Shown: positions 4,043-32,490 of the stretch, one piece after another | Layout of the letters: the number at the start of each line of letters is the position of its first letter | Position numbering within the stretch: position 1 is the stretch's first letter | From: Flectonema sp. DT1601 | Lineage: Eukaryota | DNA length: 64,000 nucleotides | Assembly: GCA_964019425.1 (NCBI GenBank) | Contig: OZ025797.1 | Location: forward strand, 620,001 to 684,000 | Direction of reading: 5' to 3' | Position numbers and translations under genes: made by a program | Notes under the pieces: model-generated | Seen by the model: only the letters and a program-made list of their open reading frames with translations | Told to the model about the DNA's origin: nothing | Databases searched by the model: none

Positions 4043-7000
4043 TTATGAGAACTTTGCCCATTTGCTGGTTTTTCTCCGCCACTCTTTGTGATGAGAGAGG
4101 ATTTCCTTCCACTGCAAAACAATCGAAGTGCGCGTAACGTTCGTTGGAACTAACACCAGAAAGTGTTCTATAAAATGAAATCGATTTGTCTCAACTTCTT
4201 CAGCTATGAAATCATGAACCGATTTCGGCTCTAAAAGTACTTCATCATTCTCATCAGGAACTAGTTCATCATTCTCATCAGGAACTGGTTCATCATTCTC
4301 ATCAGGAACTAGTCGATCACATAAATTATGAGAGAGCCGGTAAATGGCGAGGGCGGCTTCGAATATCTGCTGCATGTCCATACCGTCAAGCATCTGAAGT
4401 AGAACTCTGTACTTCTTCCAAAAGATCCTCGGATTTCTATTAGCTATTTTTCTTTGTTGTGAAGATCCCCCGAATGTTAACATATACATAACTCTCTGAC
4501 ACCAGAATTTAATATCTGTCCACCACGACTGGTTCTGAAGTCCACTAAAGAATCCAATCTTTGGCCAGGCAGCAGTGGTAGGGTCGTGTGCTATTCTTCT
4601 TAAGAATGTGACTTCATCAAACTGTTCCATACTAACCTCATCAAAAGTAGTACTCATGACACCAATGAGAAGATTAAATAACACGGCAATCAATACGACG
4701 TAGAACAACAAGAAGAAAAGAGTAGCGAACACTGGTCTTGCGGCGTACAGTCGCTGAAAGTCAAACTCACCCATTATCATAAAGAATAATCCTTGAAATG
4801 AGTGTTCGATGTCCTGTATTGTTGTTTGTTGTTGTTGTTGTTGTTTGTATCACTCCTAACAGTATAAAAGAAGACACACAAAAGATAATGATTAACATAC
4901 CCTGTAGGAGTTTACCAGACTTCCGAATACCACCCAGGCAGAGAAAATAAAACCAAACAACACAATAAGACAAATTATTAATAAGTTGAAGATAAGAGAT
5001 CCGGCACGACGAAGGGTTCTGATAATTAAATTCATATCTTTATCAGTTTGAAGAAAATAAAATGTTTTTAAAGACAAGAAGACCACAGTAATACCGTCAG
5101 TGCTTGCGGCTATCCAGGTGAGGTCAGAAATGGTTTCATACTCCTTCGGATAGACATCTGAGCAGAGGATGTGAGATGCTGAAATACCATAACTCAGATA
5201 CCAACCTTTAAACCCCCAAGTGATAACAATTAATACATTTATTATCAATTCTAAAACCAGCCAAATATCTGAAAACAGAGTTCTAATCACAGCTGCAATC
5301 AAACGAATACCTTTCGCCCTCGGAGGACATCCCCAATGAAATAGAGGAAATAACTTTCCGTGATTGTAGGCTGCTTCGTATTTCAGCAACTGATGTTGAG
5401 TCAGCCACTTTCCAACAATTCTCTTTATTGCTGCCCGGAGGAAGAAAACAAACAAAAGGATAAAGGCCATTAAACCGGGTGCCCCAATTGCGAAAGTTTC
5501 AGGGCTCATTTGAAAAAAAGAGAAAGTGTGAATACGTTTACTTGGAAGGAATGCTCCAGAACTAGAAACCTCAACCATGTATTGCATTCTTGTAATCTGT
5601 CTGGTGTTTTGATTATGAACAAAGAACTCAACCATCAGACCTCTAGTGGCAACGTCTACCCAATTCTGCTCTTTTAGAAATTCAAGTTCACTTAAAGCAT
5701 TACTCTGAGTCATACTAATAGGGAATAGCATTGAATATCCACCACATGAATATTGCATTCTATTCATCACACTGGATACGATTCCAATGTATGGAGCGAG
5801 ACCTTTACCCCCTGTCTCATCACAAGACTGGAAGACCCAAGGTCGAAGTTTTTTATAAAGCTTTTCAGCATCAACATTCCCAGCCTCTGCACTGATTCTC
5901 AAGTTCTCTAATTCTATTGTGAATGGAGCGCTAGAATGACTGAAATTGGCACCGTCGAATCCGCCACCAAACTTCTTGGGACCAAATAGGTCGATCAACT
6001 CTTCGGCAGATCTCTCGGCTTTTGATTTGAGGAAAGCCGCATCTTTTTCATAGGAATACTTATCATTCGAACTCCAAGATCCGTAACACTTTTCTAAATA
6101 ATAATTAGAACGATCAGTTGTGTCTTTTGACACTCCTTGAGAGATCCAACGACTCCAAGTATTGGTATTTGAAGTTAACCATCCGCAAGTATCTTCAATA
6201 ATTGAGGAGGCATCACTTTGAGTGAACTTCATATTTTTAATTAAATTATAAACATCAGGAAACCTTGTGTTGAAATCTGACTTGTACAAACTGTGGACCT
6301 CAACTGTCGAATACGCCGACGAGTCAGGCAAAGAAAGACGTGAAGCAGCGACACTTGACAACAGAACGTCCGTATCAAATGACCAAAATAAAAATGACTC
6401 ACCAGCTCTACTCCTCTTCAGCAACTGTTCAGAATACGTGACATGGGAAACTGCAGGTAAAACATCTTCAGGTACCCTTCCTTCATACATAGTACTGAGA
6501 CCGTTGTCACTTATAACTTTTTGAATATCATCCCACCCTCCGAAATCCAGGGAGTTATCTGGCGCATAGATTGCCACTTTTGGCGGTGTCGCACCGTCAT
6601 TTGAGAAATATTGATGAAGCTCGATACTTTCATTTAAACCAACAATCCCATCAACTACACAACGAGGACAAAGAGAAGCTCCACTCGCTGATATGTAGAT
6701 ACCCGGAGTAGGACTACCAACCTGACTGCTGTCAGCAGATATCTCAGAATTTAAAACACCTGAGGTGGTAGAGTTCCACAAAGAGAACACAACATCGAGA
6801 TTCCCAGAAAGTAATTCAGCTTCCGCAACACTACTGGTGATGGGGATGATGGTAGCGGAGACCGACATCTTTTCCTCCAAAAGATATTTAAAAACAGAAG
6901 ACGTCACACGAGAACCCGGAGTCACAGTGACCCCAACCTTCAAACTCCTCGGGAAGGTATCAGGTGACTTCTCTATGCATGTGTCTAATTCCCTGCTGTT

Positions 7001-8929
7001 GTCAACTGAACCACCAGAAAATACGTCCCACGTCTCCCAACTGGTGCTCTGTCTTACGTCACCAGTCGCGTAGCAAGCCTGAGGCAAATTATTCTCAAGC
7101 ATTTCCTTGTGTCCTTCACAATCCACATCAGGAGCACGATACTGTGTTAGCTTAACAGCTCCAATTACCTTATTAGCGTAGTGATGAGTTGTATAGACTC
7201 CGGGTTTGTGATCGTCATCAAATGCGAAGGGAAGCATTGTTTGACCAAACCAATCCCAATATTCATCGAGGTTTCGAATATCACTGAATGTCCACGCGAA
7301 GAATTGATCTGCTGCATCACCAACTTCCTCCAAACCAACAGCTTCATCAATACTAAGACCTAAGTAGAAAGCACCGCTAATGTTTGTACCAAGTTGCGTA
7401 GACATTGCGTACATAAGAAGAAAGATAATATAAAGGATAAAGTGACGCTGAAGTTTCATCTGTATCATTTTATTCTCCGTGTATTCGAGTAAGTATGATA
7501 ATCCATCAGTTTGAACAGATTGTCCTTTAATGCAATGAATAAAGAATCTCCTCTTAGGTATTAAACCTCTGAAGAAGTGGTTCATATTTCCCCAAATCGG
7601 GCAATCAATTTCAGCGACACCAGAAGCTTCAGCGTAGGCGACTTGAAATTCTTTCTCTGTGACACGTCTTCCAGCTAAACTTATAATATCATCATACAAG
7701 TCTTTAACAGTGTGTTGTACGTTAGCTTTGCTACGACGACCATACTTACCTCTCGCAGTGTATTGTTTAGAACCAACTTCTTCATAACTAGCGTCATCAG
7801 GTCGATATCCATCTAAGAAATATTGAAGTCTGTCAACGAACTCATCGTACACTTCTTCACTTACAATTGATTCACAGATCTCCTTTACGTCAGTTGCCAT
7901 TTCCAAGGCTTCATATTTTATTTCATCGTTAGTGTAGTTATTACCAAGTAGTAGCTTACCACACTCAAAGAGATGATCTTTTAGGATTGCGAAGGTTGTC
8001 TTATCACATCCGTAGTTGATGTGTTCGTTATTAGCGGCACCAGTTGATATAAAAAACACGAGTTTGCTCGCTTCAGATTTTGCAGCATTCTCATCGTCCT
8101 TGTTAGTGACGTCACTGATAGCAACTTTTTGATTTAGTCGCCAGACCTTCCCACCGATTTGTTGTTTTGCAAGTATTTGGGTATCGCTGGATGCGAGAAT
8201 GTGGATGAGACTTGAGAGTTGTTCATCAGAAATACGACAATTTAAAGTTCTGTCTTGACGGGTTGTTAGTTCTTTTTCCATCGTAACTTTTAAAAGTTTT
8301 AAAAGTTTCTTACGTTCTACTAACTGCCAAGGGTCTTCTTTCAAAGGTGTGAAGATCTCCACAATCTTCCCCTCCACTAACGGCAGTAGAAAGTCTTTCA
8401 ACTCTTCGGGTTCTAAAGTTTCACTGCCGTCAATGTTTAAAAGGTGGAAGATGTCGTCTCTGTACTCGCTGGTGATTTCTTTATAAAACTTTTTAAATTT
8501 TTGACCGTTAGTTGTCTGAAAATGATCTACTGGCTCGTTGTCCATCCACGGAGCTACAATAGACCAAAGTTTTCGCCAGTCGCAAAGGTTCAGACCGAAG
8601 GCACCAGCCCCATTAATTCGACTCTCGCGGTCAAGAGTCCTCAGTTTTGTTACAAAAACTGATTGATTGATTTTAATGAATGTCAACGCTTTTCGTAATG
8701 TGTGATGTTCGAGAGGATTTTTTATTGAATACTCTAGTGTTAGCTTGTGTAGCTTTCGAAGTCTTTTTTTTTCATCAATTGGTTCAAGAATCACAGGGTC
8801 CAAAGTTTTTTTTTCATAAATCCGACCCTCGTCATCAGGGTAGTTTGTTTCTTCAACATCACCTGTGAAGGACTCCTCCCCCTCTCTCGGTTCAGATGTG
8901 TAGCTCGAGTCTGAGTCACTGTCTGACAT
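4043..8929 (-). CDS. Polycystin-2/TRPP-like cation channel, copy A (exons 8929-4901 and 4813-4043; about 1599 aa), with an N-terminal EF-hand-like motif, an inserted OpuAC/ProX-like domain and a truncated C-terminus
   Basis: Splicing gives SYR|DIEHSFQGLFFMIMGEFDFQRL (pore helix and filter) followed by S6 LIAVLFNLLIGVMSTTF. Polycystin-domain motifs ANKVIGAVKLTQYR, GGY and LKEQNWVDVATRGLMVEFFVHN are present. EF-hand-like segment: IFHLLNIDGSETLEPEEL. Confidence 0.85.
4814..4900 (-). other. Spliceosomal intron (87 nt)
   Basis: AGG|GTATGT...CAA repeats...ACAATACAG|GAC; phase-0 removal joins the two ORFs into a complete channel. Confidence 0.9.
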
Positions 8930-10325
8930 TTTATTTTCCTTTTTCTGTTTTATAATTTAAGAAAACATTAATTCATAAAACTAATATAACCAAATGCAAG
9001 CAGCCAACCCGCCGTACAATTCGTCCAATAGAAACAAATAATTTTATTCACAAGAGGAATGGATGGGAAAGTGATGGTTGAGGAGGAACTCCACGAGAGA
9101 AGTATTCTATCCTCGGCATCAAGTCCGACACATTGCATACTGAGCAAACTAAAGAACATCGGGTTAACCCCGTAGAGCTACGAGACAACAGCAACGTAAG
9201 TAGACTCATCTTGTTAAAATATACGGCAAGAGTACTTTTGACTACAGGAAAACACCGAAGGGTTGAAAGTACTGTTTACTCCTATTTATTTTATATAATT
9301 CTGTTCTTGAGAATGTTATCATAATAACACTCAACTGATGGCACTCTTGAATAAGACAAAGAACTCTCATAACTACTAACTGTAAAGTAAACCACATTCT
9401 ATTTAGATGTGGTGACTAACCAGTTTTAAGAAGAGAACTTCAACATGGAAGGTACTCTCTGATATGAATCACGTGTTAAATCAGAAAGTAATGATGTCAG
9501 CTAAGGACGCAGTAGACTAAATGTTAAAGGACAGGAATAACGTAGAAAAGCTAAATAAGGAACGTGAAAACTCTATGTCGAAAAATTCGTAGAGGATTAT
9601 CCCAAAAAAAGAACTAACAAAAGAAAAATAAACGAACCAAAATAAAACACAAAAATAAAAACGAAAACTATCATCAGCTCAACCACCAGCGTCTTGATAT
9701 CCACCAATGAGGGGGAGAGTACGATGGGGGGCAGATATCGAAAAGGGGAGGGGGGATTGACAAAAAAATTTTGTTTTATAAATAATGTATCTGCTGGTGG
9801 CTGCTGCTGTGTGATTAATGAAAGACCGACAGTAGACGATTTGGTTTCCTTCTTTTTTTATTTGTCTGTAAATTGACTCACTCGAAAAATACTTAGGGAA
9901 GTGATCTTTCTATTTAAATCAAATAAGGAAAGAGAACAGAAAGAACTTTTAATTCGTAACATCCGGTGAGTCGATCAAATCAATGCTCCAAATCCTTAAA
10001 CCATAAAGGGGAACGCTATGATTATATTAAGAAAAAATAAAATCAAAAAAAAAGAGAACCAAAGGACGGGGGGAAGAACTGATTTTTCAAAATGAAAAAG
10101 ACGTTTCGTTCCCTCATCTCCAGTTGGATGTAAATCGTTTCGCAAACAAATTTCCGCCGTTAAAAAAAGAGAAGTAAAAAAAAAAATGAAAGGCCGTTAA
10201 TTAAACTGGCCCTCAGATTGTTGAGGAGGAGGAAACGAGAAACTGTTGATGATTCCCAAGAGGATACTCTTTATGAGAGTTTGGTACGAGTTGAGGGAAG
10301 TTGAGGGAAGTTATATTTTATTTCA

Positions 10326-13300
10326 TTACAACTCAGGACTTTGATCAACTGGAATGAGCGGCATGTCGTCAGCTCCCTGCTGGTCTACAGAATCAACGGG
10401 GTAGGGTATATCTTGTTGTGCAGCACCTTCGATGGGGAAGATCAGAGGAATACCAGGTGGTGACATCATGAATGGTGACCCTTGATGTGACTCACCGTTA
10501 ATAGCAAGTGGTGGTACCATGAGTGGTGTGTCTCCCGCTTCTTGTTGTCCTACACTTTCAATTGGGAAGATTAGAGGACCAGGCGATGGCACCTGTGAAA
10601 GTGGAGAATTTCCTGAAGGAACGCCAAGTGGCAATTGTGAAAGTGGTGTTTCATCCAGGATCATGTCTCCGTTATCGTCGGGTGGCGGAGCTCCACCAAC
10701 CTCATCATCGAAATCCATATCTAGTGGAGCGGGGTACGCAGTGATATCAGCTTCGATAATATCCAACACTTCATCAGATGGATTGATGAGTTGTCTGGCA
10801 CTCTTAATACAAGAATCAATATGTTCTCTCATTTCAAATAAAGATGATTCAAATTCTTCTTCAAGTGAACGTGAGAACTTTGCCCATTTGCTGGTTTCTG
10901 TCCGCCACTCTTTGTGATGAGAGAGGATTTCCTTCCACTGCCAACTAACTGAAGTGTGCATAAAGTTTGTTGGAACTAACACCAGAAAGTGTTCTATAAA
11001 ATGAAATCGATTTGGCTCAACTTCTTCAGCTATGAAATCGTGAACTGATTTCGGCTCTAAAAGTTCTTCAGCATTCTCATCAGGAACTAGTCGATCACAT
11101 AAATTACGAGAGAGCTGATGCATGACGAGGACGGCTTCGAATATCTGCTGCATGTCCATACCGTCAAGCATCTGAAGTAGAACTCTGTACTTCCTCCAAA
11201 AGATCCTCGGATTCCTATTAGCTGCGAGGACCATTCTTCCTTGCTGTGCAGATCTCCAGAATGTTAACATATACATAACTCTCTGACACCAGAATTTAAT
11301 ATCTGTCCACCACGACTGGTTCTGAAGTCCACTAAAGAATCCAATCTTTGGCCAGGCAGCAGTGGTAGGGTCGTGTGCTATTCTTCTTAAGAATGTGACT
11401 TCATCAAACTGTTCCATACTAACCTCATCAAAAGTAGTACTCATGACACCAATGAGAAGATTAAATAACACGGCAATCAATACGACGTAGAACAACAAGA
11501 AGAACAGAGTAGCGAACACTGGTCTTGCGGCGTACAGTCGCTGAAAGTCAAACTCACCCATTATCATAAAGAATAATCCTTGAAATGAGTGTTCGATGTC
11601 CTGTATTGTTGTTTGTTGTTTGTATCACTCCTAACAGTATAAAAGAAGACACACAAAAGATAACGATTAACATACCCTGTAGGAGTTTACCAGACTTCCG
11701 AATACCACCCAGGCAGAGAAAATAAAACCAAACAACACAATAAGACAAATTATTAATAAGTTGAAGATAAGAGATCCGGCACGACGAAGGGTTCTGATAA
11801 TTAAATTCATATCTTTATCAGTTTGAAGAAAATAAAATGTTTTTAAAGACAAGAAGACCACAGTAATACCGTCAGTGCTTGCGGCTATCCAGGTGAGGTC
11901 AGAAATGGTTTCATACTCCTTCGGATAGACATCTGAGCAGAGGATGTGAGATGCTGAAATACCATAACTCAGATACGAGCCTTTAAACCCCCAAGTGATA
12001 ACAACTAATAAATTTATTATCAATTCTAAAACCAGCCAAATATCTGAAAACAGAGTTCTAATCACAGCTGCAATTAAACTAATACCTTTCGCCCTCGGAG
12101 GACATCCCCAATGAAATAGAGGAAATAACTTTCCGTGATTGTAGGCTGCTTCGTATTTCAGCAACTGATGTTGAGTCAGCCACATTCTAATAAATCTCTT
12201 TATTGTAGCCCAGAGAAAGAAAATAAACAAAAGGGTCAAGATCATTAAACCGATTACCCAAAATGTATATTTTTCAGGGTTCTTTTGATATAAAGAGAAA
12301 GTGTGAATACGTTTACTTGGAAGGAATGCTCCAGAACTAGAAACCTCAACCATGTATTGCATTCTTGTAATCTGTCTGGTGTTTTGATTATGAACAAAGA
12401 ACTCAACCATCAGACCTCTAGTGGCAACGTCTACCCAATTCTGCTCTTTTAGAAATTCAAGTTCACTTAAAGCATTACTCTGAGTCATACTAATAGGGAA
12501 TAGCATTGAGTATCCACTACATGAATATTGCATTCTATTCATCATACTGGATACGATTCCAATGTATGGAGCGAGACCTTTACCCCCTGTCTCATCACAA
12601 GACTGGAAGACCCAAGGTCGAAGTTTTTTATAAAGCTTTTCAGCATCAACATTCCCAGCCTCTGCGCTGATTCTCAAGTTCTCTAATTCCGTTGTGAATG
12701 GAGCGCTAGAATGACTGAAATTGGCGCCGTCGAATCCGCCACCAAACTTCTTGGGACCAAATAGGTCGATCAACTCTTCGGCGGATCTTTCGGCTTTTGA
12801 TTTGAGGAAAGCCGCATCTTTTTCATAGGAATACTTATCATTCGAACTCCAAGATCCGTAACACTTTTCTAAATAATAATTAGAACGATCAGTTGTGTCT
12901 TTTGACACTCCTTGAGAGATCCAACGACTCCAAGTATTGGTATTTGAAGTTAACCATCCGCAAGTATCTTCAATAATTGAGGAGGCATCACTTTGAGTGA
13001 ACTTCATATTTTTAATTAAATTATAAACATCAGGAAACCTTGTGTTGAAATCTGACTTATACAAACTGTGGACCTCAACTTTCGAATACGCCGACGAGTC
13101 AGGCAAAGAAAGACGTGAAGCAGCGACACTTGACAACAGAACGTCCGTATCAAACGACCAAAATAAAAATGACTCACCAGCTCTACTCCTCTTCAGCAAC
13201 TGTTCAGAATACGTGACATGGGAAACTGCAGGTAAAACATCTTCAGGTACCCTTCCTTCATACATAGTACTGAGACCGTTGTCACTTATAACTTTTTGAA

Positions 13301-15871
13301 TATCATCCCACCCTCCGAAATCCAGGGAGTTATCTGGCGCATAGATTGCCACTTTTGGCGGTGTCGCACCGTCATTTGAGAAATATTGATGAAGCTCGAT
13401 ACTTTCATTTAAACCAGCAATCCCATCAACTACACAACGAGGACAAAGAGAAGCTCCACTCGCTGATATGTAGATACCCGGAGTAGGACTACCAACCTGA
13501 CTGCTGTCAGCAGATATCTCAGAATTTAAAACACCTGAGGTGGTAGAATTCCACAGAGAGAACACAACATCGAGATTCCCAGAAAGTAATTCAGCTTCCG
13601 CAACACTACTGGTGATGGGGATGATGGTAGCGGAGACCGACATCTTTTCCTCCAAAAGATATTTAAAAACAGAAGACGTCACACGAGAACCCGGAGTCAC
13701 AGTGACCCCAACCTTCAAACTCCTCGGGAAGGTATCAGGTGACTTCTCTATGCATGTGTCTAATTCCCTGCTGTTGTCAACTGAACCACCAGAAAATACG
13801 TCCCACGTCTCCCAACTGGTGCTCTGTCTTACGTCACCAGTCGCGTAGCAAGCCTGAGGCAAATTATTCTCAAGCATTTCCTTGTGTCCTTCACAATCCA
13901 CATCAGGAGCACGATACTGTGTTAGCTTAACAGCTCCAATTACCTTATTAGCGTAGTGATGAGTTGTATAGACTCCGGGTTTGTGATCGTCATCAAATGC
14001 GAAGGGAAGCATTGTTTGACCAAACCAATCCCAATATTCATCGAGGTTTCGAATATCACTGAATGTCCACGCGAAGAATTGATCTGCTGCATCACCAACT
14101 TCCTCCAAACCAACAGCTTCATCAATACTAAGACCTAAGTAGAAAGCACCGTTAATGTTTGTACCAACTTGCATAGATACTGCGTACATAAGAAGAAAGA
14201 TAATATAAAGGATAAAGTGACGCTGAAGTTTCATCTGTATCATTTTATTCTCCGTGTATTCGAGTAAGTATGATAATCCATCAGTTTGAACAGATTGTCC
14301 TTTAATGCAATGAATAAAGAATCTCCTCTTAGGTATTAAACCTCTGAAGAAGTGGTTCATATTTCCCCAAATCGGGCAATCATTTTCAGCGACACCAGAA
14401 GCTTCAGCGTAGGCGACTTGAAACTCTTTCTCTGTGACACGTCTTTCAGCTAAACTTATAATATCATCATACAAGTCTTTAACAGTGTGTTGTACGTTAG
14501 CTTTGCTACGACGACCATACTTACCTCTCGCAGTGTATTGTTTAGAACCAACTTCTTCATAACTAGCGTCATCAGGTTGATATCCATCTAAGAAATATTG
14601 AAGTCTGTCAACGAACTCATCGTACACTTCTTCACTTACAATTGATTCACAGATCTCCTTTACGTCAGTTGCCATTTCCAAGGCTTCATATTTTATTTCA
14701 TCGTTAGTGTAGTTATTACTACGCAGTAGCTTACCACACTCAAAGAGATGATCTTTTAGGATTGCGAAGGTTGTCTTATCACATCCGTAGTTGATGTGTT
14801 CGTTATTAGCGGCACCAGTTGATGTAAAAAACACGAGTCTGCTCGCTTCAGATTTTGCAGCATTCTCATCGTCCTTGTTAGTGACGTCACTGATAGCAAC
14901 TTTTTGATTTAGTCGCCAGACCTTCCCACCGATTTGTTGTTTTGCAAGTATTTGGGTATCGCTGGATGCGAGAATGTGGATGAGACTTGAGAGTTGTTCA
15001 TCAGAAATACGACAATTCAAAGTTCTGTCTTGACGGGTTGTTAGTTCTTCTTCCATCGTAACTTTTAAAAGTTTTAAAAGTTTCTTACGTTCTACTAACT
15101 GCCAAGGGTCTTCTTTCAAAGGTGTGAAGATCTCCACAATCTTCCCCTCCACTAACGGTAGTAGAAAGTCTTTCAACTCTTCGGGTTCTAAAGTTTCACT
15201 GCCGTCAATGTTTAAAAGGTGGAAGATGTCGTCTCTGTACTCGCTGGTGATTTCTTTATAAATCTTTTTAATTTTTGGATGGTAAGTTGTCTGACAAGGA
15301 TCTAATGGCTCGTTGTCCATCCACGGAGCGCAGAACGTTGGCATGGATTCACCACCGCTGGCTGCGTCACATCTGTTTGGTTGTTTAGTTTTAGAGATGA
15401 ATAACTTTGAGATAATTATTTTCAAACAACAGATTACAAAACACACCTCGATTGGAACTCAGCTCCCACAATAGACCAAAGTTTTCGCCAGTCGTAAAGG
15501 TTCAGACCGAAGGCACCAGCCCCAACAATTCGACTCTCGCGGTCAAGAGTCCTCAGTTTTGTTACAAAAACCGATTGATTGATTTTAATGAATGCCAACG
15601 CTTTTCGTAATGTGTGATGTCTGAGAGGATTTTCTATTGTGTATCTTAGTGTTAGCTTGTGTAGCTTTCGAAGTCTTTTTTTTTCATCAATTGGTTCAAG
15701 AATCACAGAGTCTAAAGGTATTTCACGAGTCTGATCCTCGTGATCATCAGGGAGGGTTGTTTCCTCAACATCTGCGAACCATTTAAAAGCACCGCAGGCA
15801 TCCCTCTCATCCTTTTCGATGATCGTTTCCGAATCAGATGTGTAGCTCGAGTCTGAGTCACTGTCTGACAT
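10326..15871 (-). CDS. Polycystin-2/TRPP-like cation channel, copy B (exons 15871-15447, 15372-11676 and 11600-10326; about 1798 aa), same architecture plus a long Pro/acidic C-terminal tail
   Basis: Three ORF-track segments join in frame through two GT-AG introns. Same motifs as copy A. Confidence 0.85.
11601..11675 (-). other. Spliceosomal intron (75 nt), homologous to 4814-4900
   Basis: GTATGT...ACAATACAG, with a shorter CAA tract than in copy A. Confidence 0.9.
15373..15446 (-). other. Spliceosomal intron (74 nt), present only in copy B
   Basis: TCGAG|GTGTGT...AACCAAACAG|ATGT; phase 2, giving EFQSRCDAASGG. Confidence 0.85.
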
Positions 15872-16256: not shown

Positions 16257-18216
16257 TTAAGCAGAGTGAGGCTTTACAATATCTCCAAATATCAAAGACG
16301 GAGGCGGGCGGGTGAGTCGCGACGATGAGCCAGCAGTTTGTTGTGCAACCGCAGCAGCTCTCGGCGTCGATTTCGGAGTCGCAGCTGATGAAAAGACATT
16401 CGGCAGTGAGTTGGCCTTAACAGAACAAACACAGAGACTGTACATCTCATGTAACCACACACAGAGTGAATGTGAGCAACCTGAAGCTTTCATAACGTTA
16501 TCGGGAGAACACTTTTGATCGGAAGAATACTTTTTTAATATTCCAATAAAGTCTTCTGGATGATCAGACACATCATCAGGTGCTTCTTTTAATCTAATTA
16601 ACATCTCAGATGTTCCTAAGTGATGTGTTGCCATTCCCCAATTCACGTTTGGGTAACGAAGGACTCGAAGTACCGTAAGAACAGTCTGTTTGGTTGTGTT
16701 ATTACATGTTACAGATGTTTATTACAACAGAAATCAACATCTAAACAAAAGAATCCTAACATACTTTTCTAACAGCAGACGGTGGATAGATTAATGATTT
16801 AATCTGACGAAGGGTTTTCATTTTTATTGGAACCGAGAGAGTGACGTTGTCGTTGATTTGATTATCTCCTCTCTGTGGTGTTGTAAATGAGGACATCGAA
16901 GTAATTAAGGAACTACTCGATATTGGTAGTGACTTCCGAAGTATTTCTGAAATCTCAGTCTGCATTTGCCGACTTTTTTGAAATAACGCTGCCGTCTGAT
17001 ATGCAGGTCTGTCACCAACTGTATCAGCATCACCATCACTTCCCTTTCGCATAGCTTTAACAGGAGATTTTTGTGATCCAGATCCATTCTCGGGTTCGGC
17101 ATTTTTTCCAGCGGGTATCAGTAGTGGCCGCAGCTTCTTAATTTGACAAGCACTTTTTTTTAACCGAGACTGAACCTGTAATAAATACTGTTGTTGCGGA
17201 CCGATGACACATCCTGGGCGCATAAGTCGCATCCACGTTATGGCAGACTCTGCAGTAAAATGATGATATTTAATAAGATAACATCCTATCAATGTTCCAG
17301 TCCTACCAAGACCAGCTTTACAATGTATTGCTATCCCACCAGGTGTTGACTCAATGAATTCAAAGAATCTCATTATAATATTGTCACTCGGGTTACTGCC
17401 GTCGGTGTATATCAAATCGATGTGTCTGAAACCAGCCTCCGTAAAAACTTGACGAGAGTACGTCTTCCTACAGAGTCGTATTATTCCAGTTATGCCGCGG
17501 TCTCGAAATACTTTGCAATACTCTTCAGGGCCCCAACTCTTGAAGCCATAAGCTGCTTCATTAGAAATAGCATTTGGTGTACACAACGCAATAAATCTTT
17601 TATGAGGTTCCTCTCCCTTCGCTGATGAGTTGCTAGTCGGAGGGACAATCCAATTCCAATCTCCGTTTTGAGGCTGTTCGTAGAAATCATATTCTGAGCA
17701 ATCAAACTTCCTCCAATTAATCCATCCGAGGTCTCTACCACGTGATAATCCTTGAAGACAATTTAATATGGTACAGTTAAATGTTGAAATCCCAACACTA
17801 ACATCACGAAATGGAAGGAATGGAGGGTAACTTGAACAGATTAAATTCCACGCGCGTTCCGGAGAGTATCCCAAAGATAGTACACAAAATGCTGTTATGA
17901 GAAATCCTGCATTGGCGCGTTTATGTCCATCGTGCGATGAGTAAAAATAAAGTTTTTTATTCTCTAATTCTGGTGCGTTTAGATTTCTGTGACACGATCG
18001 ACAAAACTTAACCAACGCGGACATGTTGAGAGGTCCAAAGTCTGCTTCAAAAGGTTCGTAGACCAGATCAATGTCGGCAGTCCAAAAATAATAATTCTGA
18101 TCACTCTCCGGGTGTCCTCTCAAACTAATGAAATACAACTTGTCCGTTAGAATGGTACTTGCCCGTCCTAAGACGGATGCACCCAAAGGCCCTTCACCCT
18201 GTTGCTCTAATTCCAT
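16257..18216 (-). CDS. CDC14: Cdc14 dual-specificity phosphatase (exons 18216-16765 and 16685-16257; about 626 aa) with a C-terminal dynein MTBD-like domain
   Basis: N-terminal domain LVYEPFEADFGPLN, PFRD and NGDWNWIVP; catalytic IAIHCKAGLGRTGTLIG; RPGCVIGPQQ. Confidence 0.92.
16686..16764 (-). other. Spliceosomal intron (79 nt)
   Basis: AAA|GTATGT...AACCAAACAG|ACT; phase-0 join gives PPSAVRK|TVLTVLRVL. Confidence 0.88.
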
Positions 18217-18908: not shown

Positions 18909-21719
18909 CTATGTCATAGAAGATTTACTTCCGCGTGAAGGTAAGGGTTGCAATGATGATCTTGGTCTGGAACTTACTGATGTTAGTGACGGACGCCTAC
19001 TCACAGATCCAATAGTAGAGCGAGGTCGTGAAATAGGTGTAAGTCGACGTTGCGGAGATGCAGACTTTTCTACGGTTTCTGTGTTTTCCGTTAATTCCGG
19101 CTCTTCATCTACCTCGTGTTCATCTTTTTGTTCATCTTTTGAATCAGAATTCCTGCGCTGCTGCCATTTTTGCTTCAGAACCCGTTGTCTGTTTTCTATT
19201 CCTGATACGTTTGAAATTGATATAGATTTCTTCTTTCGCACAATCGGGAGAGTTTTCTTTCTCGGAGGAGGAGCACTTCCCTTAACAGAATCTCTCACGG
19301 TTGAAAACAATTGAATTAAGTATCCAGATATACTATCACTCAAGGCTGAACTATTCATCGGAAGTTTTTCCTCATCTGTAAGAATAGCTTTTGTGTATGA
19401 CTGAACATTAGACTGCACGCTGCCTCTGATTGTGTTGGTGTCAGAGGCTTTCTTTATGATATTTGTAAGAGCCTGATCGGCTGTCTCTTCTGCATTACCA
19501 AGCTGGCCCGAAATTGACGCACAAAAACACTTTACCAAAGTATGAATCTTATGCAAAGGTGCAACTCTGTAATTGTTTGTTGACTCTTGCGTCCCGTGGA
19601 TTTGACTTTTTAGATTTTTCACGTAGGCTCTGAATTGCGATAGCTTTGGTACTCCTGGTACGTCAGCGAGGGATAGTAAACTCTCATCTGGGCAATCCGT
19701 ATTCGGATGACGCGACGACTTTGTGGCTGTATTGCGAAATGAGCTGTACACGGCAGATCTTACTTTCTTTGTTAGTCCGAGATTAGGTAGCTGATCTACA
19801 GGTTCAGCTTTAAAGGTGTCGTGGTAAAACATATTCTGACGTTCAGATGATTCGATATAAGACCTTAACCTGTACTGTGATGAGTACATCTTTGAAACTT
19901 GAGCAATTAGTCTTCCCTGCAAAGCCTCGTACATTCCTCGCTCTTCATCTGTTAGTGTATTGTGACGAATTCCTCGAGTAAGAGCTGCTGTTGCAGCCTT
20001 CCAATTATCAGCATTGGTGGTTGATGAAGATGTGTCCGAGACAGACTGTGCTGGGGATGCGTCTCCGATTTTCTGATTTTGTCTTATTATCTTTCGCACG
20101 TTTTCGAACCTCCCCTCCGGATTAAGCATCATTCCCTGTCTCCCCTTTAATAACCGATGGGTTATTCTCCAGACGTCTCCCTGTTTCATGGGTTTCAATG
20201 GTTGCATCACAACTTCTAACTCTAACTCGCTGTCATAGCGGAGATCGATGTCCGCCCATCCCTCTGGTGTTTGGCGTTTCTCGCGATACACCTGTGTGGC
20301 TCTCGTTGATAAATATATATCCCCCCCCGAAGTTGCTGACAGAATCCTAATACAACGTTGCAGCACAGTCCCGCTACACAAGTCTGCTGTGAGGGTACCC
20401 TTGTGAATTGCACAGCGAGCACGTAGTCCATTCCAGATTAGCTGTTGGTGGTACTCCTCATCTTCTATTTCCCCGTCATGTAGTTCCACAGCAATGTCTG
20501 AGGTTGGTTTACAAGCAGCATACAACAATATCTGCTGAGGCCATGCTATTTTTAACATTGATGTTTGCAGTCTGGTACAAAACCAAACAGCTTGCTCTAT
20601 TTCCGAAAACGCCAAAACATAAGATTCTCCAGCGCACTCAGTGTCAACATCACGATGCAGCATTTCTCCTTCCAGACCTTTGCTCAGTTCGACTGTTAAT
20701 GTTTCGGCTGCCAGCAAAGCTTCTCCATAGTGTTCTGGGCAAACTCGTCTCAAGAAGTTTCCATCCTGAATCTGTTTGTGGTAATATTGCCTCAAATCAT
20801 GTTGAAAATAAGAATCCCCGTTCAATACTATTGGAGTTTCAAATATAACTCGTTCTAGAACGCAGAGAAGATATTTTTCTGAAGTATCACTTACGGTACA
20901 AAGGTGATGTTTCATTTATGAAACAACTCTTCAATGAAACTCTACATGATATTTACAAGTTAAGAAACAACACACCTGCATCATTACTATGAATTTAGTT
21001 TTCGCATTCGGGGAGTTGTGAAAGCTGACATTGTTTGAATGAACGACCTCATCATTATCGAAAGCATTACCAACATGTGATTGCCAGTTATTAATATTAC
21101 TGTTTAACCGTTGTTCAAGGACTGCTATCCTTCCACGAAGTTTAGTCATTTCAGCATCCTGATCTTCAATTTTCCATCTAATTGTATCTATGCGTTCATT
21201 GCAAGTACTGGTCACCGATAAGCAGCTCTTCAAACCTCTCAATATGCTACGGAACGAAGAATGGAGAGCCATTGCTCGGATATCTACAGGCATGGAAGTA
21301 ATCATCGAATGGACGTCATTGTAGAAGTCGGTAAATAATATTTTCAGAATATCAATCGCCTTTTCCAATACTTCCGAACTATTGTCCGAGAAGGCGATTG
21401 CATCCAAGTCCTCGAGACACTCAGACAAGACAGGAACTGCTGATATTACTTTTCCCAGAGTTCCAACCCTCTCAGAGGTGGTACCTTTCAGGTATGGACC
21501 TAACCTTCCCAGCTCCGCTATCGGACCACCTGCACTAGTAGTCAGTAAGACTTCTTCTGCTTTAGCTCTAGCATAATCCAATTCATCATTTTCTAGTGCC
21601 TCGTCATAATAATTGAGCGTGTGATTTACTCGTTCTAGTCCTCTTTTTACTTGATCCTGGTGATCCAATGCGTCAGGCGTGACACTTCCCTGTCGGTTCA
21701 CTCCCTGCGGCGTTTCCAT
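18909..21719 (-). CDS. Class III nucleotide cyclase-like protein, probably catalytically degenerate (exons 21719-20976 and 20771-18909; about 868 aa)
   Basis: The spliced product has KFIVMMQ|IQDG...AGESYVLAF...AVWFCTRLQ...WPQQIL...WNGLRARCAIHKG...SGGDI, matching the TIVFTDI / GDxFMxAF / WxGLRVRxGIHxG / GGQI pattern of fungal and trypanosome adenylyl cyclases. An N-terminal coiled coil and a basic disordered tail flank it. Confidence 0.75.
20772..20975 (-). other. Spliceosomal intron (204 nt)
   Basis: CAG|GTGTGT...CCACAAACAG|ATT. The other nearby AG acceptors I checked were out of phase; this one restores the cyclase beta-1 motif. Confidence 0.75.
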
Positions 21720-22142
21720 CCTGCAAATACCTCAACAGATTATTGTAAACTTTGAATAAATTGAATAACCCAAATGGTACAACAAGAATAACTAACGAGG
21801 TATCATTTTGAGACCGTAAATGAGGAAATCAAACCTCATGTTGAAAACCAACTTTGGGACTTCATTATTTACGCTGTTCCTGTGAAACAAAATGAATCGA
21901 AGAGGAACAACAAATTATCTAAAGCACCACTTTCAAACATTACATGAGAGGTAACCCAAACCATGCCATGACCTTAAGTTTCCACATTCTTATGCAACCC
22001 TGAAGATATACCAATGGGGACTGAGACCACACAAATCTCACCTGGAACTTAATTCTTTAAACATGTGCTAACACACACTCTTCCTTAAATTCACAATTAA
22101 CAACGCGTCGACCGTCATGGTCATTTGGGATGAGGCGATCGG

Positions 22143-22290
22143 CAGGGTGGAGGTGTTCACGATTTTTCACTTTGCTACACGAAAATTCACGATTTTTCAC
22201 GATTTTTCACTTAATTTTTTGCTGCTTTCTGGTAGTGAAATCCCGTGAAAATGTGTGAAAATGTGTGAATTCTAATGAAAAAAGTGAGTG
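22143..22290 (+). mobile_element. Probable DNA transposon terminus (hAT-like) with subterminal repeats
   Basis: Starts CAGGGTGG; carries repeated TTCACGATTTTTCAC and oppositely oriented GTGAAAA motifs. No partner end identified. Confidence 0.4.
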
Positions 22291-23185
22291 ATATCCAGAT
22301 GGTACCGTTGGTGCTGGTGTGCTGTGTGATGTCAAACCTGTTCAGTTTGCCATACATGTCACTTTGACACTAAATGGGCATCGCTTGTGCCCAGTGACCC
22401 ATCACCCTTCCTGACCATCGCTTGTGGAGGTTCCGGACTTTGGACCAGCACATCGCGTGTGGTGGGTTTAATCACTGAGGGGCTCATTCTCGTTCAGACT
22501 GTTCTGTTCTATGATGTCTTTCCATTTTGGACAATTCTATATTGTGCACACATGAACTCCATGATGTTGCCCATTTCCTCGTTACTGAGAGACATCAGGT
22601 AAGCGTATGCCCGCCTGCGACGATGAGAGTACTTGATGAGGCGCTTGTTGCGCTGCAAGAATGTGAGAACCCACCTGAGGAATGGAATACCTCGAAGCGG
22701 GCATGATAACACATAGCATGCAAATGCTAAGGTTCCGAAGCGCCCATTCGTAACCTTCTCTTTAAATGGGCACGCCCTAAAAGAGATGCGGTGCTTCTTG
22801 CGAAGCCAGTAAGCAAACGACCGATTCCCACGTATGAAGAAGCACAGCGTTACTATTGAACGGAGGAAGTCACTGAGGCCAAAGTACTTCGCAATCCAGG
22901 AGGCAATGCAATGAACTCGGTGTGTAGGCTCCGGGATGAGGCAGATATTGCCATCTTGGTCAAATAATTTAAACCCCCTGTATTCTGATCCACCCCGATC
23001 ACTGAGCGCAGAGGTAATCGAGAATGTGATTGAGCTACTCAACAATCAGAAGCAATCGCGATGTTTTCGCAACATCGACATCGTCTCTCAGACTCGAGTC
23101 ATATATTTGGACCTGTACTTTGCTAAGTGTATTAGTGAGCTTTAGAACAGTGAACGATACATGACATGAAGACTGGCAATGATAC

Positions 23186-24704
23186 TTACCTAGGCACTGG
23201 CGGTTTCGCATCGTACTTTGGGCCCACATCTTTCCTGCGATCTCCTCCATAACTAGCAGCGACTCGTTCAGGTCCATTGAAAACTCTTTGTTCCGACCTC
23301 TTTGGACCCTCCTCACCTGATCCTCGATTCGGTTCTTCATTAGACTGCCGATCAACGTCGACACCTCGGCCCCTTCTGATCGCAGAATCTTCTCCCTTAT
23401 TTCCAAGATACGATCTGGAACTTGAGCTAACTCTTCTGACACTGACCTTCTTTGGCATGTGTCTCCCTGATCGCGGCTTAAACACCGCTTTACTAACTCG
23501 GGGCTGACCTCTGTTCATTTGTGACCTTTGCCAGCCCCCCCAACGTTTCCCGAGAACCCTTTTCCCTTGTTCTCGAAATTCCGTGGGTTCCAACTCCCCA
23601 TTACTCTCCCCTTATACCCTTTCCCGCTCATTTCTATCTTGTGCTTTTTCTCTGCATCAACCTGCCATCCTCACTGCCTTCTCAAACAACATCCCTGACT
23701 TGACCCTTAATCCTTTTCGTCGTGTATTCCCATTTCATAATCAACGACTCCAATGATTTATTCATACTCCGAACCAACGGTTTGGAGGTAATCCAGTCTG
23801 CTGATCTTGTACTTGCCGCCTTCACATTATCTCTTACAATTTCAAAGGCTGCCTTCAACTCCCTTAACTCCCTCGTGGCTAATTTACCCTTGTGCACTGA
23901 CCAGTATTTGTTCTCTAATTTATCCAGCAACCTTTCTGATCCACCTTGCGCCAAAATATCGCGCCATTGTAGCACGTTGGTCGCATCCGACGCTAGATCG
24001 AAATCTAGACATTCGACGTTCTCTGGAGACAATTGACACACATCTGCTGACTTCTTTTTTAATAATTCTGATGAATGCTGCAACTGCATCTGACATAATT
24101 GTTGATTTTGCGATAATAGTGCCATCATTTGTTGCACCATACTACTCTCTTGTTGTATTTGTGGCTGGGGTTGCGCACCATGCATCTGTGGCGATAACAA
24201 TGACGCCACCTGCGATTCCAAATTAGTTACCTTTTGGCACATGCCTAACATCTTTTGTTCATTTTCTAGTACTAACCTTTTTGACCACTCGTCCCAATAC
24301 ACATCCTTGCTTATTACATGGGCATATTCAAACCCCGCATGTGGAAAATCGAACGTTTCGTCCGGACCCGTGTGTCGATACACATCCCTTAATAGACTTG
24401 TTGAATTTGACAAGGTTACCCTCCCCATATTACCCACCATTGACAATAAGCCACAATACCACTTCCAACTTGATTCACCTTCCTTCCTCATACAATAAAC
24501 CGCTTCTCTACCAATAAGGGCCAACGAGTTGTTCTTCATCATCTCTTCGGACATTTTGGATTGGGGATCCCAAAACGTCCCTGCTTCCCCGATGGTGGCA
24601 CGTGGTGATTGTTCTCTCACCGTCCTCAAATCCTCAAACAGAATTGAATCCAAATCCATCTCAGCTCCTACATGCGGAATTTCCACAATTGGTGGTGTAG
24701 ACAT
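23186..24704 (-). mobile_element. Degenerate retroelement-like segment: 340-aa gag-like ORF followed by the start of a possible tyrosine recombinase (DIRS/VIPER/TATE-like)
   Basis: Intronless ORF with a coiled-coil, Q-rich middle and a broken 3' end. The downstream frame has KMWAQSTMRNR, resembling the WAxSTxxxR start of YR N-terminal domains. No catalytic YR or RT motifs seen. Confidence 0.3.
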
Positions 24705-24966
24705 TCTTTTGTTTTAGAGAAATAAACAAAAAGAGCAAAATTTGCTAAGGAAAGGAAGTAACATATTAGTTAAATTGTACCGATATACTATAACGTCTCA
24801 AACACAGCGCTAACCAGTGCAACGAGAGCTAAAAAAATTCGATAAACCACTTCTGATCCAACATTTTAGGTGCAGAGTGCATTTTAGATAAGGAAGGACA
24901 TTTTTCATTTTCCGTTCCGTTAGGACGGAAAAGTAATAAGTATAATAAGATTTTCGACGTACCAGA

Positions 24967-25009
24967 GCCTGCATAGCCTAGTGGTTATGGTCGTCGACCT
25001 TAAATCGCC
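24967..25009 (+). pseudogene. tRNA-like 5' half (pseudo-tRNA or SINE head), cut off by a MITE
   Basis: GCCTGCA-TAGCCTAGTGGTTATGGTC (A-box and D-arm-like), then CGA-CCTTAAA-TCG (anticodon-like arm). No T-arm or B-box. Confidence 0.45.
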
Positions 25010-25220
25010 GGAAAAATTAGTGCGGTTTGGTTGCTTTTTTGCTGTGTAAGGCACCAGCAGAAAAATGCAGCTGGAGAAAAAATCACTTCTGAGCAGAAAT
25101 ATTAGTGCGGTGGAAATATTAGTGCGGTGGAAATATTACTGCGTGGAAAAATTAGTGCGGTTTTTTGCAGATTTGGAAATTAGTGCGGTTTTTTCCGCGC
25201 AGTAATATTTCCAGTTACAG
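25009..25220 (+). mobile_element. Left-truncated copy of the 302-bp MITE found at 54032-54333
   Basis: Shares the internal sequence and the right TIR GCGCAGTAATATTTCCAGTT(A)CAG. Confidence 0.9.
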
Positions 25221-25251
25221 CATTCTTTTATTATTTATTTTTTTAAAAAAA

Positions 25252-25343
25252 AAACAATCAGTTAAGCGTCTTGACCAGGACGGAAAATAGAAATTAATCG
25301 ACATAGTCGATCGATAAAAAAACAATGATAACATTGTTTATTC
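25252..25343 (+). repeat. Solo copy of a ~90-bp palindrome-containing repeat followed by poly-T
   Basis: Matches the three units at 32363-32743. Confidence 0.9.
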
Positions 25344-25364
25344 TTTTTTTTTTATATATAATAT

Positions 25365-27150
25365 GAGAACGTGCCAAAAGTAGGGTACAATTTTGGGCCA
25401 CGGGTATCTGACGGTCCCTAAGTGTGAATCCGACCACTTTTCACAAGATATTTTATACTCAAAAAATGCAATTCCGTGTCTGGGAAGTGATTTTACTCGT
25501 AGCTAGTTTCAAAATTCCATATTTTCCCTAAGAGCTTACCTGTAGTATAAGGAGAATGGTAGTGATACTAGGTTCGACCAGGTGCTTAATAGGCAGTACT
25601 GATAATACAATGATGTGCTTTCTTTTTATAAAAATCATTGATTTTGCTGAAGTTCTTAATTGCTACACGTCACTGGGAGTGCTGGAAGTACTGCTACCAG
25701 CACAGGTACTACTGATACTGGTACACATACTGTCACTACTGGTAATGATGCTACTGGTGCTGCTTTCAAATTCTGATTGGAAGAGCAACGTCGATACTCC
25801 GAGTTGAGCTATCAACAGAAGACTGTTCATAAAGAACAGCTGGATCAATCCATGTTGTTGATGGAGATGGCCAGTGAGCTCTCTGAGCAACTCTATTTGG
25901 CAAAAGACCAAAACAGAACTCTCAAGTTTCAGTTACAAACTTGGGCAAATGGTTTTAACCCGCCTGAAAAGGAAGCGCAAGAAGAGAATGAGACCCCAAC
26001 GCGTCCGAGGGAGCGCTTATCACAAAAAAAGCGAACTCCACCGTCAACGAACTCAACGAACTTTCATGATCGCAGAAGAATCTTTTAAGATGACGATTGC
26101 TATTAGTATATCAGTCAAAATTTTATTTCCTTATCAAAAATAGGCAAAAACGGAAAAGTGGACCACAAAATTGCTGTGAGGAGTAAATGTGCCGACCAAA
26201 GCTGCATTTAAATGCGCGGAAACATGTGATCCTGCCCGACTAATAATCGGAATTCCTAAATCTGAAGAGCATCCTTCAAACTCACAACCGAGATTTCGCA
26301 GTTTCCTCTTTTCGGTCAACCATGGATGAGTCTCTCACCTGAAAATAAATCGAAGTGCTTATTCGCGTAGATGGGGGTCAGCCCGATTAAATAAAAAAAA
26401 AATCGAGCAAAAATATCATAAAACTGATTCTTGTACAGTGGGGTAGCCGTCAGCTTACTACAGTATTTTTTAACCACTTTTCCACACTCATTTTTGGACA
26501 CTTTTGACACACTACTTTTCTGACCTTATTCTTTGGAATTATGATGAGCTATCGGAGGTTTCATCAGAACTGTCGTCGTCATCGTCGTCATCAAAGCTGG
26601 TGCCTGAACTACCGCTACAACTGCTACTATCCAAGTCTGGCTCCCTGTAACTCGCACAGCTCGTGGTCTGCTCTGATGCAGTGCGCACAGAAACACGATA
26701 GAGCACGATATCCCATTGTGTATTGCTGAATCTCATTCTGATAGCCGTTCACGAGAGAGCGGAAGGAGAAGAAGTTGCTCTGGATGCCGGGTAGGGTCAT
26801 GCTGCCGTAGCGGGGGGAGATATCAACTAAGTCAGGTAAGAAGTTAAACACTCGTGAGCAAACAACATGCGTCGAAGCAGCGAGTTTCATTCTCTTGCTC
26901 GCAACTTCATACAGTGATCTTGCGTCAACTATTTCTCCTTGCATCTCGTATTGTTTGGCGGAGCGCGCGATGTCAAGAGCAAACTTCTTCAGTTGATAAC
27001 CCTCGGAATCCCATGGGCCTTTGCCATGCCCAGTTGGAAAACGATCCCAGGTAATATCCCTGTTAGCTGCTGCCATCCACCCCAGCATAAATTTCGCCTT
27101 GAAGTGATACGCCCGAATTTTAGTACCCGGTATCCCCAGTCAAAAGCTGG
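25365..27150 (-). mobile_element. Sola2-like DNA transposon, truncated copy with a C-terminal transposase fragment (about 26539-27110)
   Basis: Terminus ATAT|GAGAACGTGCCAAAAGTAGGG; the first ~410 bp are shared with 28474-28887. The fragment reads AYHFKAKFMLGW...ITWDRFPTGHGKGPWDSEGYQLKK...YRALSCFCAHC, with the HGKGPxD motif typical of Sola2 transposases. Confidence 0.7.
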
Positions 27151-27154
27151 CGAC

Positions 27155-28459
27155 AAACAAGACAAATGAAGTAACAGACCAGAACAGATAGAGAATAAAA
27201 AGAAAAGATATAGGCAAGAGTTATTGTAGTAAAAGATAACAAATAAATAAATGCAAGTATCAACACATGACTAAATTACACCAGCAGCTAACAAACAACA
27301 TAAAATTGAAGATCAGTTGCCAGAGTATTTCAACCATGGTAGAATACTCGCCCCTCTGGCAGGGATTATCCCAGACTTGTCCTTTAATTTAGTTGGACAC
27401 CATGGCTTACAACCCTTCCAGAGGGAAGCACCATTATGACTTCTATTTTTTTTCTTCAAGAATATCATAAGGTGGGAACAAAGAAAAATGTTATGCCCAA
27501 TGCACTAACAGGTCATTCCCTCGCACTCAGATCTATATAAAAAATTTCTAAGTGAGAAATACTTAGCAACTTTTAGAACAAATATTTCAGTAAATAACCT
27601 GTAATGATTAAACCATTACAGGTTTGATGCCAAAACTGACAAGGACTGAGTTGAATTTACCAGGTGAGATTTGGATTGGCTAAGGCCCTCCCTGAAGAGC
27701 AAGAACAAAAAAACTACTCACACCTGAAGAAAACATACACAAAGAACACACTGTAAGCTGTGTGTGTATTTTGTGTTTGTCACAACAGGAGAGAAAAGAA
27801 AGAATGTCAAGGTTGGTCACCTTGCCTATCAACGCACAACATTGGTGGTCTCTACTAGACCCTGAGTGATCCCACTGGATCTCTCATCGTTCATAGTACC
27901 TATGTGAAGTTATAAAATCAAAGGTAAACTATGAACTACAAATGACTTAGCCTGTTATTATAATGCCACAGGCAGGCCCTGCATTCAGCAACTATCCAGC
28001 AGTGCTTGGATGTCCTGATCTTCTTCTAAAAAAAAGAAAGAAAAACAAAACTGTAGCTGGGATCACTCAGGATCAACAGACTACCAATGCTACCTGTTGT
28101 ACTTGCTCACTATGGGGGGTGATGCCAAACACCCAGAAGTACTAAACTGCTTTCCTTCTTGCTGCCCAGGAGTTTCTGACCAGAACTAATAGAAAATAAA
28201 AAGTAGATGGGAAACAATAAAAAGTAAAATGGATATAACTGAAGTTAAACAAGACAAATGAAGTAACAGACCAGAACAGAAAGAGGATTGTAATAGAAGA
28301 TTACAAATAAAAAAAATGCAAGTATCAACACATAATCAAGATACACCAGCAGCTAACAAACAACATAAAATTGAAGATCAGTTGCCAGAGTATTTCAACC
28401 ATGGTAGAATACTCGCCCCTCTGGCAGGGATTATCCCAGACTTGTCCTTTAATTTAGTT
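27155..28459 (+). repeat. Diverged, internally deleted copies of the 1,356-bp unit outside the array
   Basis: Colinear with the unit, with substitutions and deletions (junctions near 27491, 27533 and 27676). Confidence 0.95.
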
Positions 28460-28473
28460 TTTTATTTATATAT

Positions 28474-30260: not shown

Positions 30261-30544
30261 ATATATATATATTTTTTTTTTTTTTTTTCATGTTTGATTA
30301 TTTCCTCTTCATTTTTTTTTTTTCTTTTCTTTTCTTTCTTTTTTTTTTTTCTCTCTGCCTCTCTCTTAATTCTGTTCGTTTCTTTGAAACGAAAATTCAT
30401 TTGAATATTATTCCTTGGTCAGCAACCATCATTGTCGCCCTTTGGGCCTGTTAAAAAAAATAAAAAATAAAAAGAAAGTTTACATCGGGAATAGGGCAGG
30501 AGCCAAAAGCTCCCAGTCCGTTACTTCCCACTTTATCGAAATTC
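30261..30544 (-). repeat. ~285-bp segment, inverted partner of 31928-32220
   Basis: The reverse complement matches GAATTTCGATAAAGTGGGAAG...AATCAAACATG plus poly-A at 31928-32220. Confidence 0.92.
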
Positions 30545-30579
30545 AGCTTTTTTTTTTTTTTTTTTTTTGGACACCATGG

Positions 30580-31019: not shown

Positions 31020-31050
31020 ATTGACTTACAAGTTCAAAGCCCGCGGTTCG

Positions 31051-31240: not shown

Positions 31241-31262
31241 GCCCTTCTTTTTTTATTAATTT

Positions 31263-31926: not shown

Positions 31927-31927
31927 G

Positions 31928-32455: not shown

Positions 32456-32490
<35 letters not shown>

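Follow-up and report, generated by a model that had tools for sequence, protein, structure and literature searches.

Can dynein's microtubule-binding domain (MTBD) be carried by a cell-cycle phosphatase, and if so, does it still bind microtubules there? The question is raised by a Cdc14 gene of Flectonema sp. DT1601, located within a 64,000-nucleotide stretch of contig OZ025797.1 (positions 620,001 to 684,000, hereafter the window). The preliminary description of this stretch, based on the letters and their open reading frames, proposed that 2 neighbouring frames are joined by splicing into a Cdc14 that ends in an MTBD-like module. Diplonemids are abundant marine single-celled flagellates, and the dynein MTBD is usually regarded as belonging to the motor.

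Gene structure

The Cdc14 gene lies on the minus strand and extends from an ATG at 18216 to a TAA at 16259-16257; with the intron at 16764-16686 removed, it encodes a protein of 626 aa (Table 1). The frame of exon 1 stops just past ...AVRK, where GTATGT starts at 16764, and the second frame resumes past the CAG at 16686 and ends with the TAA at 16257. The intron (GTATGT...CAAACAG) has a GC content of 29%, compared to 40-42% in the flanking coding DNA, and the 2 polycystin genes of the window contain apparent introns of 75 and 87 nt with the same GTATGTTA...CAG signature. Comparison of 13 in-frame GT/GC-AG pairs with the D. papillatum orthologue placed the chosen pair first, with 102 bits (94 for the runner-up), and the spliced tail aligns with residues 484-595 of the orthologue without gaps across the junction (E = 1e-24). 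At the same codon, genome ORF P0003 ends 2 residues into an apparent intron and genome ORF P0133 reads through an 18-residue in-frame insert. The peptide quoted in the preliminary description was recovered on the minus strand, interrupted by this intron, and the splice it postulated between exon 2 and the phosphatase exon is borne out by the ranking of the 13 pairs and by orthologues that are contiguous across the junction. Automatic callers give 2 proteins at this locus (P0001 and P0122), which would fit a gene without splicing, with exon 2 as a separate ORF or with the intron retained and a 486-aa product. Such a gene is scarcely credible, given the uninterrupted fusion in D. papillatum and 2 TRINITY transcript-derived proteins, the lack of H1 in exon 2, and the identical junction in P0003 and P0133.

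Table 1. Features of the Cdc14 gene, with positions counted from the first letter of the window.
Feature	Position	Strand	Basis
Exon 1 (codons 1-484): Cdc14 catalytic region, linkers, MTBD helix H1	16765..18216	-	ORF and translation
Intron, 79 nt, GT-AG, phase 0, within helix H2	16686..16764	-	junction shared with P0003 and P0133
Exon 2 (codons 485-626 and stop)	16257..16685	-	ORF and translation
Tandem DSP domains, DSPn and DSPc, residues ~22-352	17161..18153	-	Pfam PF14671 (E 3e-45) and PF00782 (E 4e-12); PDB CDC14A (E 4e-94)
Catalytic loop HCx5R, intact (H298, C299, R305)	17296..17325	-	aligns with CDC14A/B
S-P-x-K site (S384), optimal Cdk/Cdc14 motif, linker otherwise divergent	17056..17067	-	sequence; putative role
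Conserved linker helix, residues 408-429	16930..16995	-	orthologue identity 36-82% vs 0-43% in flanking linkers
MTBD module, 5' part (H1, PP turn, H2 start), residues 464-484	16765..16827	-	homology
MTBD module, 3' part (H2-H6 and CC2), residues 485-570	16428..16685	-	homology; fold of the D. papillatum orthologue
C-terminal R-L-x-R-P...L-I-F motif, residues 607-617	16287..16319	-	common to the window protein and 5/120 listed Cdc14s

Other contents of the window

The polycystin-like channel genes (4046-8956 and 10329-15458, both on the minus strand) are near-identical and arranged in tandem, and each contains an OpuAC-like domain (bacterial-type, glycine-betaine-binding) inserted in the extracellular loop. 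Upstream of Cdc14, at 18909-21731 (minus strand), lies a gene of at least 2 frames with no Pfam match, the N-terminal part of which, judged by eye, may resemble a degenerate nucleotide-cyclase-like fold. The ORF at 2-1126 (minus strand) has a weak GIY-YIG match (E = 3.5e-4) and may belong to a mobile element. From ~33800 to 64000, copies of a 1356-bp A-rich unit follow one another head to tail, with 22 exact seed matches, 2 longer spacings, and no long ORF. An Rfam scan over 22000-38500 yielded only a weak twister-P1 at 22395-22474, which scored 28.7 bits where the gathering score is 67.2.

The phosphatase and its tail

By all features tested, the window protein is a Cdc14 with an intact active site. 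The exon-1 protein gave 1560 matches, the best 120 of which were listed and used for the Cdc14 comparison. Among the matches listed, its catalytic region is 44-47% identical to those of vertebrate CDC14A; the general-acid D272, upstream of the catalytic loop, aligns with that of CDC14A/B, and both D272 and C299 are invariant in the Cdc14 alignment. DSPn and DSPc, HCx5R, and the general-acid Asp are thus shared with the Cdc14 family (human CDC14A/B and S. cerevisiae Cdc14; PDB 9RIB, 1OHC, and 5XW5), and the differences lie in the tail. Whereas other Cdc14 tails are described as variable and disordered (PMC3038932, PMC11407943), that of the window protein holds a predicted folded MTBD of ~105 aa, along with a helix specific to the lineage and an SPxK site.

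Of the 6 diplonemid orthologues, 5 have an SPxK beyond the catalytic domain, and the linker helix corresponds to residues 415-440 of the D. papillatum model, where pLDDT is about 56-68. By analogy with SLiCE motifs, as presented in PMC11407943, the site and the helix together suggest possible self-regulation. No QGD-type SLiCE motif was found in the exon-1 tail of the window protein; a loose QGD pattern matched 109 of the 120 listed Cdc14s and was discarded as non-specific. The C-terminal motif, in the form R-[LP]-x-R-P...L-[ILF], recurs among the 120 listed Cdc14s in P0002, P0005, P0006, P0010, and P0013, all of which are euglenozoan. Its presence indicates that exon 2 is read in the given frame to its end, and its occurrence in euglenozoan Cdc14s both with and without the module suggests that it is older than the fusion.

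Homology and fold of the C-terminal module

Exon 2 alone matched dynein heavy chains in the PDB, with dynein in 8 of the 10 rows and a best E value of 1.5e-4, and the D. papillatum module alone matched dyneins with an E value of 2.2e-10. A profile built from 4 Cdc14 modules retrieved 56 PDB sequences at E<=1, including 24 at E<=0.001 (best, 1.2e-12). Judged by name or size, every one of the 56 is a dynein chain or an MTBD construct; the match labelled RSPH9 is 4583 aa long and aligned at DNAH10-like coordinates. The closest sequence matches of the module were axonemal chains that lack the flap (8GLV_Fm, Leishmania 9Y6S_9Q, and DNAH6). Taken singly, the modules of Artemidia and Namystynia gave an E value of 0.17 and no match, respectively, against dynein, and in Pfam scans of the modules PF12777 fell below the threshold and was not reported. 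The earlier assertion that the module is invisible unless the ORFs are joined therefore holds for Pfam but not for exon 2, which finds dyneins by itself. The homology that it claimed is upheld by the profile and by the orthologue; the module, at ~16827-16428, slightly exceeds the 16815 edge given for it.

An AlphaFold2 model of the D. papillatum module, computed from 4 Cdc14 tails without dynein rows, reached a pLDDT of 87.8 and a pTM of 0.82 and consists of 6 helices followed by a long C-terminal helix. The preliminary description had called for a comparison with dynein MTBD structures, and the outcome is in its favour, with the fold evidence coming from the D. papillatum orthologue model rather than from the window's own spliced module. 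In VIA, 123 of the 125 residues of the model superimposed on the mouse MTBD (3ERR), with a Z score of 14.6 and an rmsd of 2.4 A; 12 MTBD rows scored between 10.3 and 14.6, and the next row 4.8. A wide unbiased structure search likewise returned an MTBD (Z = 13.6), and the top 19 Foldseek matches were MTBD-containing entries; the Foldseek probability reached 1.0, although the best E value was only 2e-3. In the full-length D. papillatum model, the module forms a separate domain after disordered linkers. Neither D. papillatum model (module or full-length) contains a CC1 helix before H1, and hemistasiid modules may keep a short CC1-like helix.

By profile searches and predicted fold, the module is a dynein MTBD by descent and structure, without the full contact set. 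With the stalk-tip MTBD (part of PF12777; 3ERR, 6RZB, and 6KIO), it shares H1-H6 and CC2, the core W, the PP, the hydrophobic pattern, and, largely, the basic residue of H6; the hydrophobic core and the core W and P columns are kept in the modules. Unlike dynein, the Cdc14 protein has no AAA+ ring, linker, or coiled-coil 15-nm stalk (no AAA domains were found in its 626 aa), and its module differs from the dynein MTBD in having a non-helical CC1 (in the D. papillatum models), no H1 glutamate, and a score below the PF12777 threshold.

Conservation of the fusion in diplonemids

The 5 best non-self matches of the exon-1 protein scored 463-532 bits, whereas all others listed scored <=362. They comprise D. 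papillatum KAJ9463485.1, 2 genome ORFs, and TRINITY-derived proteins from Artemidia motanka and Namystynia karyoxenos, both Hemistasiidae. Cdc14 and the MTBD are contiguous in D. papillatum, Artemidia, and Namystynia (the latter 2 transcript-derived), and 2 genome ORFs have the same junction; P0125 represents another hemistasiid-like module tail. The fusion, proposed earlier from the spliced frame, is thus conserved in both diplonemid families sampled, Diplonemidae and Hemistasiidae. Among the 120 listed of the 1560 matches, the module profile found no match in the 114 non-diplonemid Cdc14s (best E = 4.4). In the catalytic-domain tree (39 of the 120 listed sequences, 332 columns), the diplonemids form a clade with UFBoot 100, sister to Papus and Apiculatamorpha (100) within a euglenozoan clade (97), a grouping that agrees with the species-tree expectation and marks the source of the window as a diplonemid. 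Most likely, the fusion predates the split between Diplonemidae and Hemistasiidae. Word-based protein searches with exon 2 or the module alignment as query returned only the 3 inputs; a metagenome DNA scan returned 1 Cdc14 locus, without the module; and in the ESM Atlas exon 2 had no usable match, while the D. papillatum module gave leads only (0.89) to PF12777-bearing clusters.

Between the window protein and D. papillatum, the module is 36% identical, compared to 14-18% for the linkers and 59% for the catalytic domain, and the module is better conserved than the linkers in most pairwise orthologue comparisons. Mean identity among modules is 28%, against 44% among dynein domains, which indicates that the Cdc14 modules drift fast.

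Motor-free microtubule-binding domains

The representatives search gave 361 matches at E<=0.001, the best 150 of which were listed. Sorted by their flanks, 147 listed matches comprised 51 proteins with 2-6 MTBDs and no detected AAA flank, 35 dyneins, 13 stalk fragments, and 48 single unclassified domains, an assignment for which a Pfam check of 60 showed a few errors among the unclassified. Motor-free carriers occur in Diphylleia, Cyanophora (TPR and 3 MTBDs), Gefionella, and Pharyngomonas, and the tandem entries include P0121, P0123, P0124, P0126-P0131, P0135, and P0138. Like the Cdc14 module, these are MTBDs without a motor; however, they come in 2-6 copies and have the H1 glutamate in 117 of 128 domains, whereas in Cdc14 the module occurs once, is joined to an enzyme, and lacks this glutamate. 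The tandem repeats mostly keep the tubulin contacts, and their proteins are candidate microtubule bundlers. Because motor-free MTBDs are widespread, a detached MTBD is less unique and mobility of the module becomes credible. In a FastTree phylogeny of 217 domains and 128 columns, the 6 Cdc14 modules did not form one clade. As to the donor, per-domain scores slightly favour dyneins (72 bits at best, vs 64.5 for free repeats).

Three chains of sub-dynein size in microtubule structures, 9FQR_Xl (1344-1497), 9YA2_L (1209-1457), and 9E5C_2e (147-420), align with 117-122 of the 125 residues of the D. papillatum model (Z = 8.1, 7.1, and 6.2) and are to be taken as leads only. Chain 9FQR_Xl may be EFCAB5, a guess from length. 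The size of 9YA2_L fits the resolved globular domain of Toxoplasma ICMAP2, in the available part of whose description an MTBD is not mentioned (PMC12819142).

Tubulin contacts and the switch residue

The yeast MTBD makes 6 salt bridges, via K3117, E3122, R3124, R3152, R3159, and R3201, and the partners of those in H3 are able to shift along the helix (PMC7042235). In Dictyostelium dynein, the E3390-R403 pair constitutes the weak-to-strong switch, and the weak state relies on the positive H2/H3 surface (PMC4298687). For comparison, residues 9-107 of the D. papillatum module were set equal to yeast 3115-3213, which are of the same length, with no compensating gaps assumed, and domains of the 147 other top matches were used where at least 80% of the profile was covered.

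D. papillatum has K487, D492, R494, R525, K571, and K574 at the contact positions. The window module has M466 (yeast K3117), Q471 (the H1 glutamate), K473, K550, and G553, with no K or R in H3, and H1 of Artemidia and Namystynia is devoid of basic residues. The H1 glutamate (yeast E3122, Dictyostelium E3390) is E in none of the 6 Cdc14 modules, one of which has D, as opposed to 34/35 dynein domains, 13/13 stalk fragments, and 117/128 motor-free repeat domains. On a score of 5 contacts, the 35 dynein domains reach 3-5 and D. papillatum 5 (with D for E), whereas the other 5 modules score 1-2 (the window module, 2), below all dynein domains and below 116 of the 128 motor-free repeat domains. Net charge ranges from +2 to +6 in all 6 modules (dynein median, +2; free-domain median, +3); since dynein and free domains typically carry such a charge as well, it is only weak evidence of binding. 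Basic residues occur in H2 of 6/6 modules, compared to 14/35 dyneins, and in H3 of 5/6, and the one in H6 is largely kept. Judged by these columns and by the conserved core, the modules have kept the MTBD fold and lost the switch. For the window's species, canonical strong binding to microtubules is improbable, and a weak electrostatic attachment by the module is plausible. The microtubule anchor postulated in the preliminary description, at the axoneme, basal body, or spindle, is plausible but would be weaker than it suggested.

These contacts bear on 3 alternative readings. A stalk-free module might act as a strong, stereospecific dynein-like anchor that always binds with high affinity and occupies the lattice at 8-nm intervals. 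This would suit D. papillatum best, with its 6 residues in place, and the MTBD has been called permanently primed, H1/CC1 alone moving on binding (PMC6629372); it is nonetheless improbable, as the H1 glutamate is absent from all 6 modules, with an acidic residue in only 1, and the window module retains 2 of 5 contacts. Alternatively, the fold could be repurposed, at least outside D. papillatum, with the module binding another protein instead of tubulin, whether a partner, a factor for localisation, or the phosphatase domain of its own chain. A conserved core beside a decayed H1 tubulin face points in this direction, as do positions that vary in dynein and are uniform in the modules (the H2 basic residue), the binding of LC1 by a dynein MTBD in PDB 6L4P, and the contact of the f-alpha MTBD with N-DRC helices (PMC11779644). 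We consider it rather unlikely in view of the 5 scored tubulin contacts kept in D. papillatum and the largely kept basic residues of H6 and H3. Finally, rapid divergence (28% mean identity), a deletion in H6 of the Artemidia module, and the lost tubulin contacts could mark a decaying vestige or a spacer without present function. That is very doubtful for a module that has stayed in frame and at full length, keeps its hydrophobic core across 2 families, and, in most of the pairs compared, has diverged less than the linkers.

Proposed function

We propose, with a probability of about 0.5, that the module is a switch-less, weak, and ATP-independent microtubule tether for Cdc14. Lacking the stalk and the flipped E-R ion pair, it would stay near the weak, diffusive binding state of dynein, with net positive charge and the basic residues of H2, H3, H5, and H6 holding it on microtubules. 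A motor would not be needed for this, since the isolated yeast MTBD binds microtubules with a Kd of 6.7 uM (PMC7042235). Such a tether would concentrate Cdc14 on microtubule-bound phospho-Ser-Pro-x-Lys substrates, possibly at the basal body, the flagellar or feeding apparatus, or the spindle, and the SPxK site of the linker may regulate it. The module of D. papillatum would bind most strongly, and those of the window's species and of hemistasiids less so.

The Cdc14 of Phytophthora infestans offers a precedent and an argument against the tether. This phosphatase of a flagellated protist localises to basal bodies and sediments together with microtubules, yet its C-terminal region comprises only 85 aa with a QGD motif, and no MTBD-like domain is described in the available part of the report (PMC3038932); Cdc14 may therefore not need an MTBD-like module to bind. 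A broader and more tentative proposal is that the MTBD is mobile far beyond motors, being used by many eukaryotic lineages in tandem arrays and fusions, and that the copy on diplonemid Cdc14, made switch-less through the loss of CC1 and of the H1 glutamate, diffuses on microtubules and dephosphorylates Cdk sites there.

Significance

In the literature searched, which lies outside subscription journals, we found neither a Cdc14-MTBD fusion nor a motor-free dynein MTBD family described, and a search for Cdc14 came up empty in the available main text of PMC12324889, PMC13615690, and PMC11633173, as well as in those supplements of PMC13615690 and PMC12697944 that could be searched. Little is understood of mitosis in diplonemids, and for D. 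papillatum tagging exists (PMC12324889) and degron tools are reported (10.64898/2026.09.11.751042). A core cell-cycle enzyme carries an MTBD across a major class of marine protists, in a module that ordinary annotation misses, and the motor-free tandem-MTBD set forms an unexamined class of candidate microtubule-associated proteins. If the MTBD is indeed mobile beyond motors, the track-binding domain of a motor would have been put to use in enzyme targeting. Should the module bind microtubules, it would hard-wire the link between Cdc14 and microtubules that has been proposed to be ancestral in flagellates and would constitute a natural experiment on an MTBD without a stalk or switch residue.
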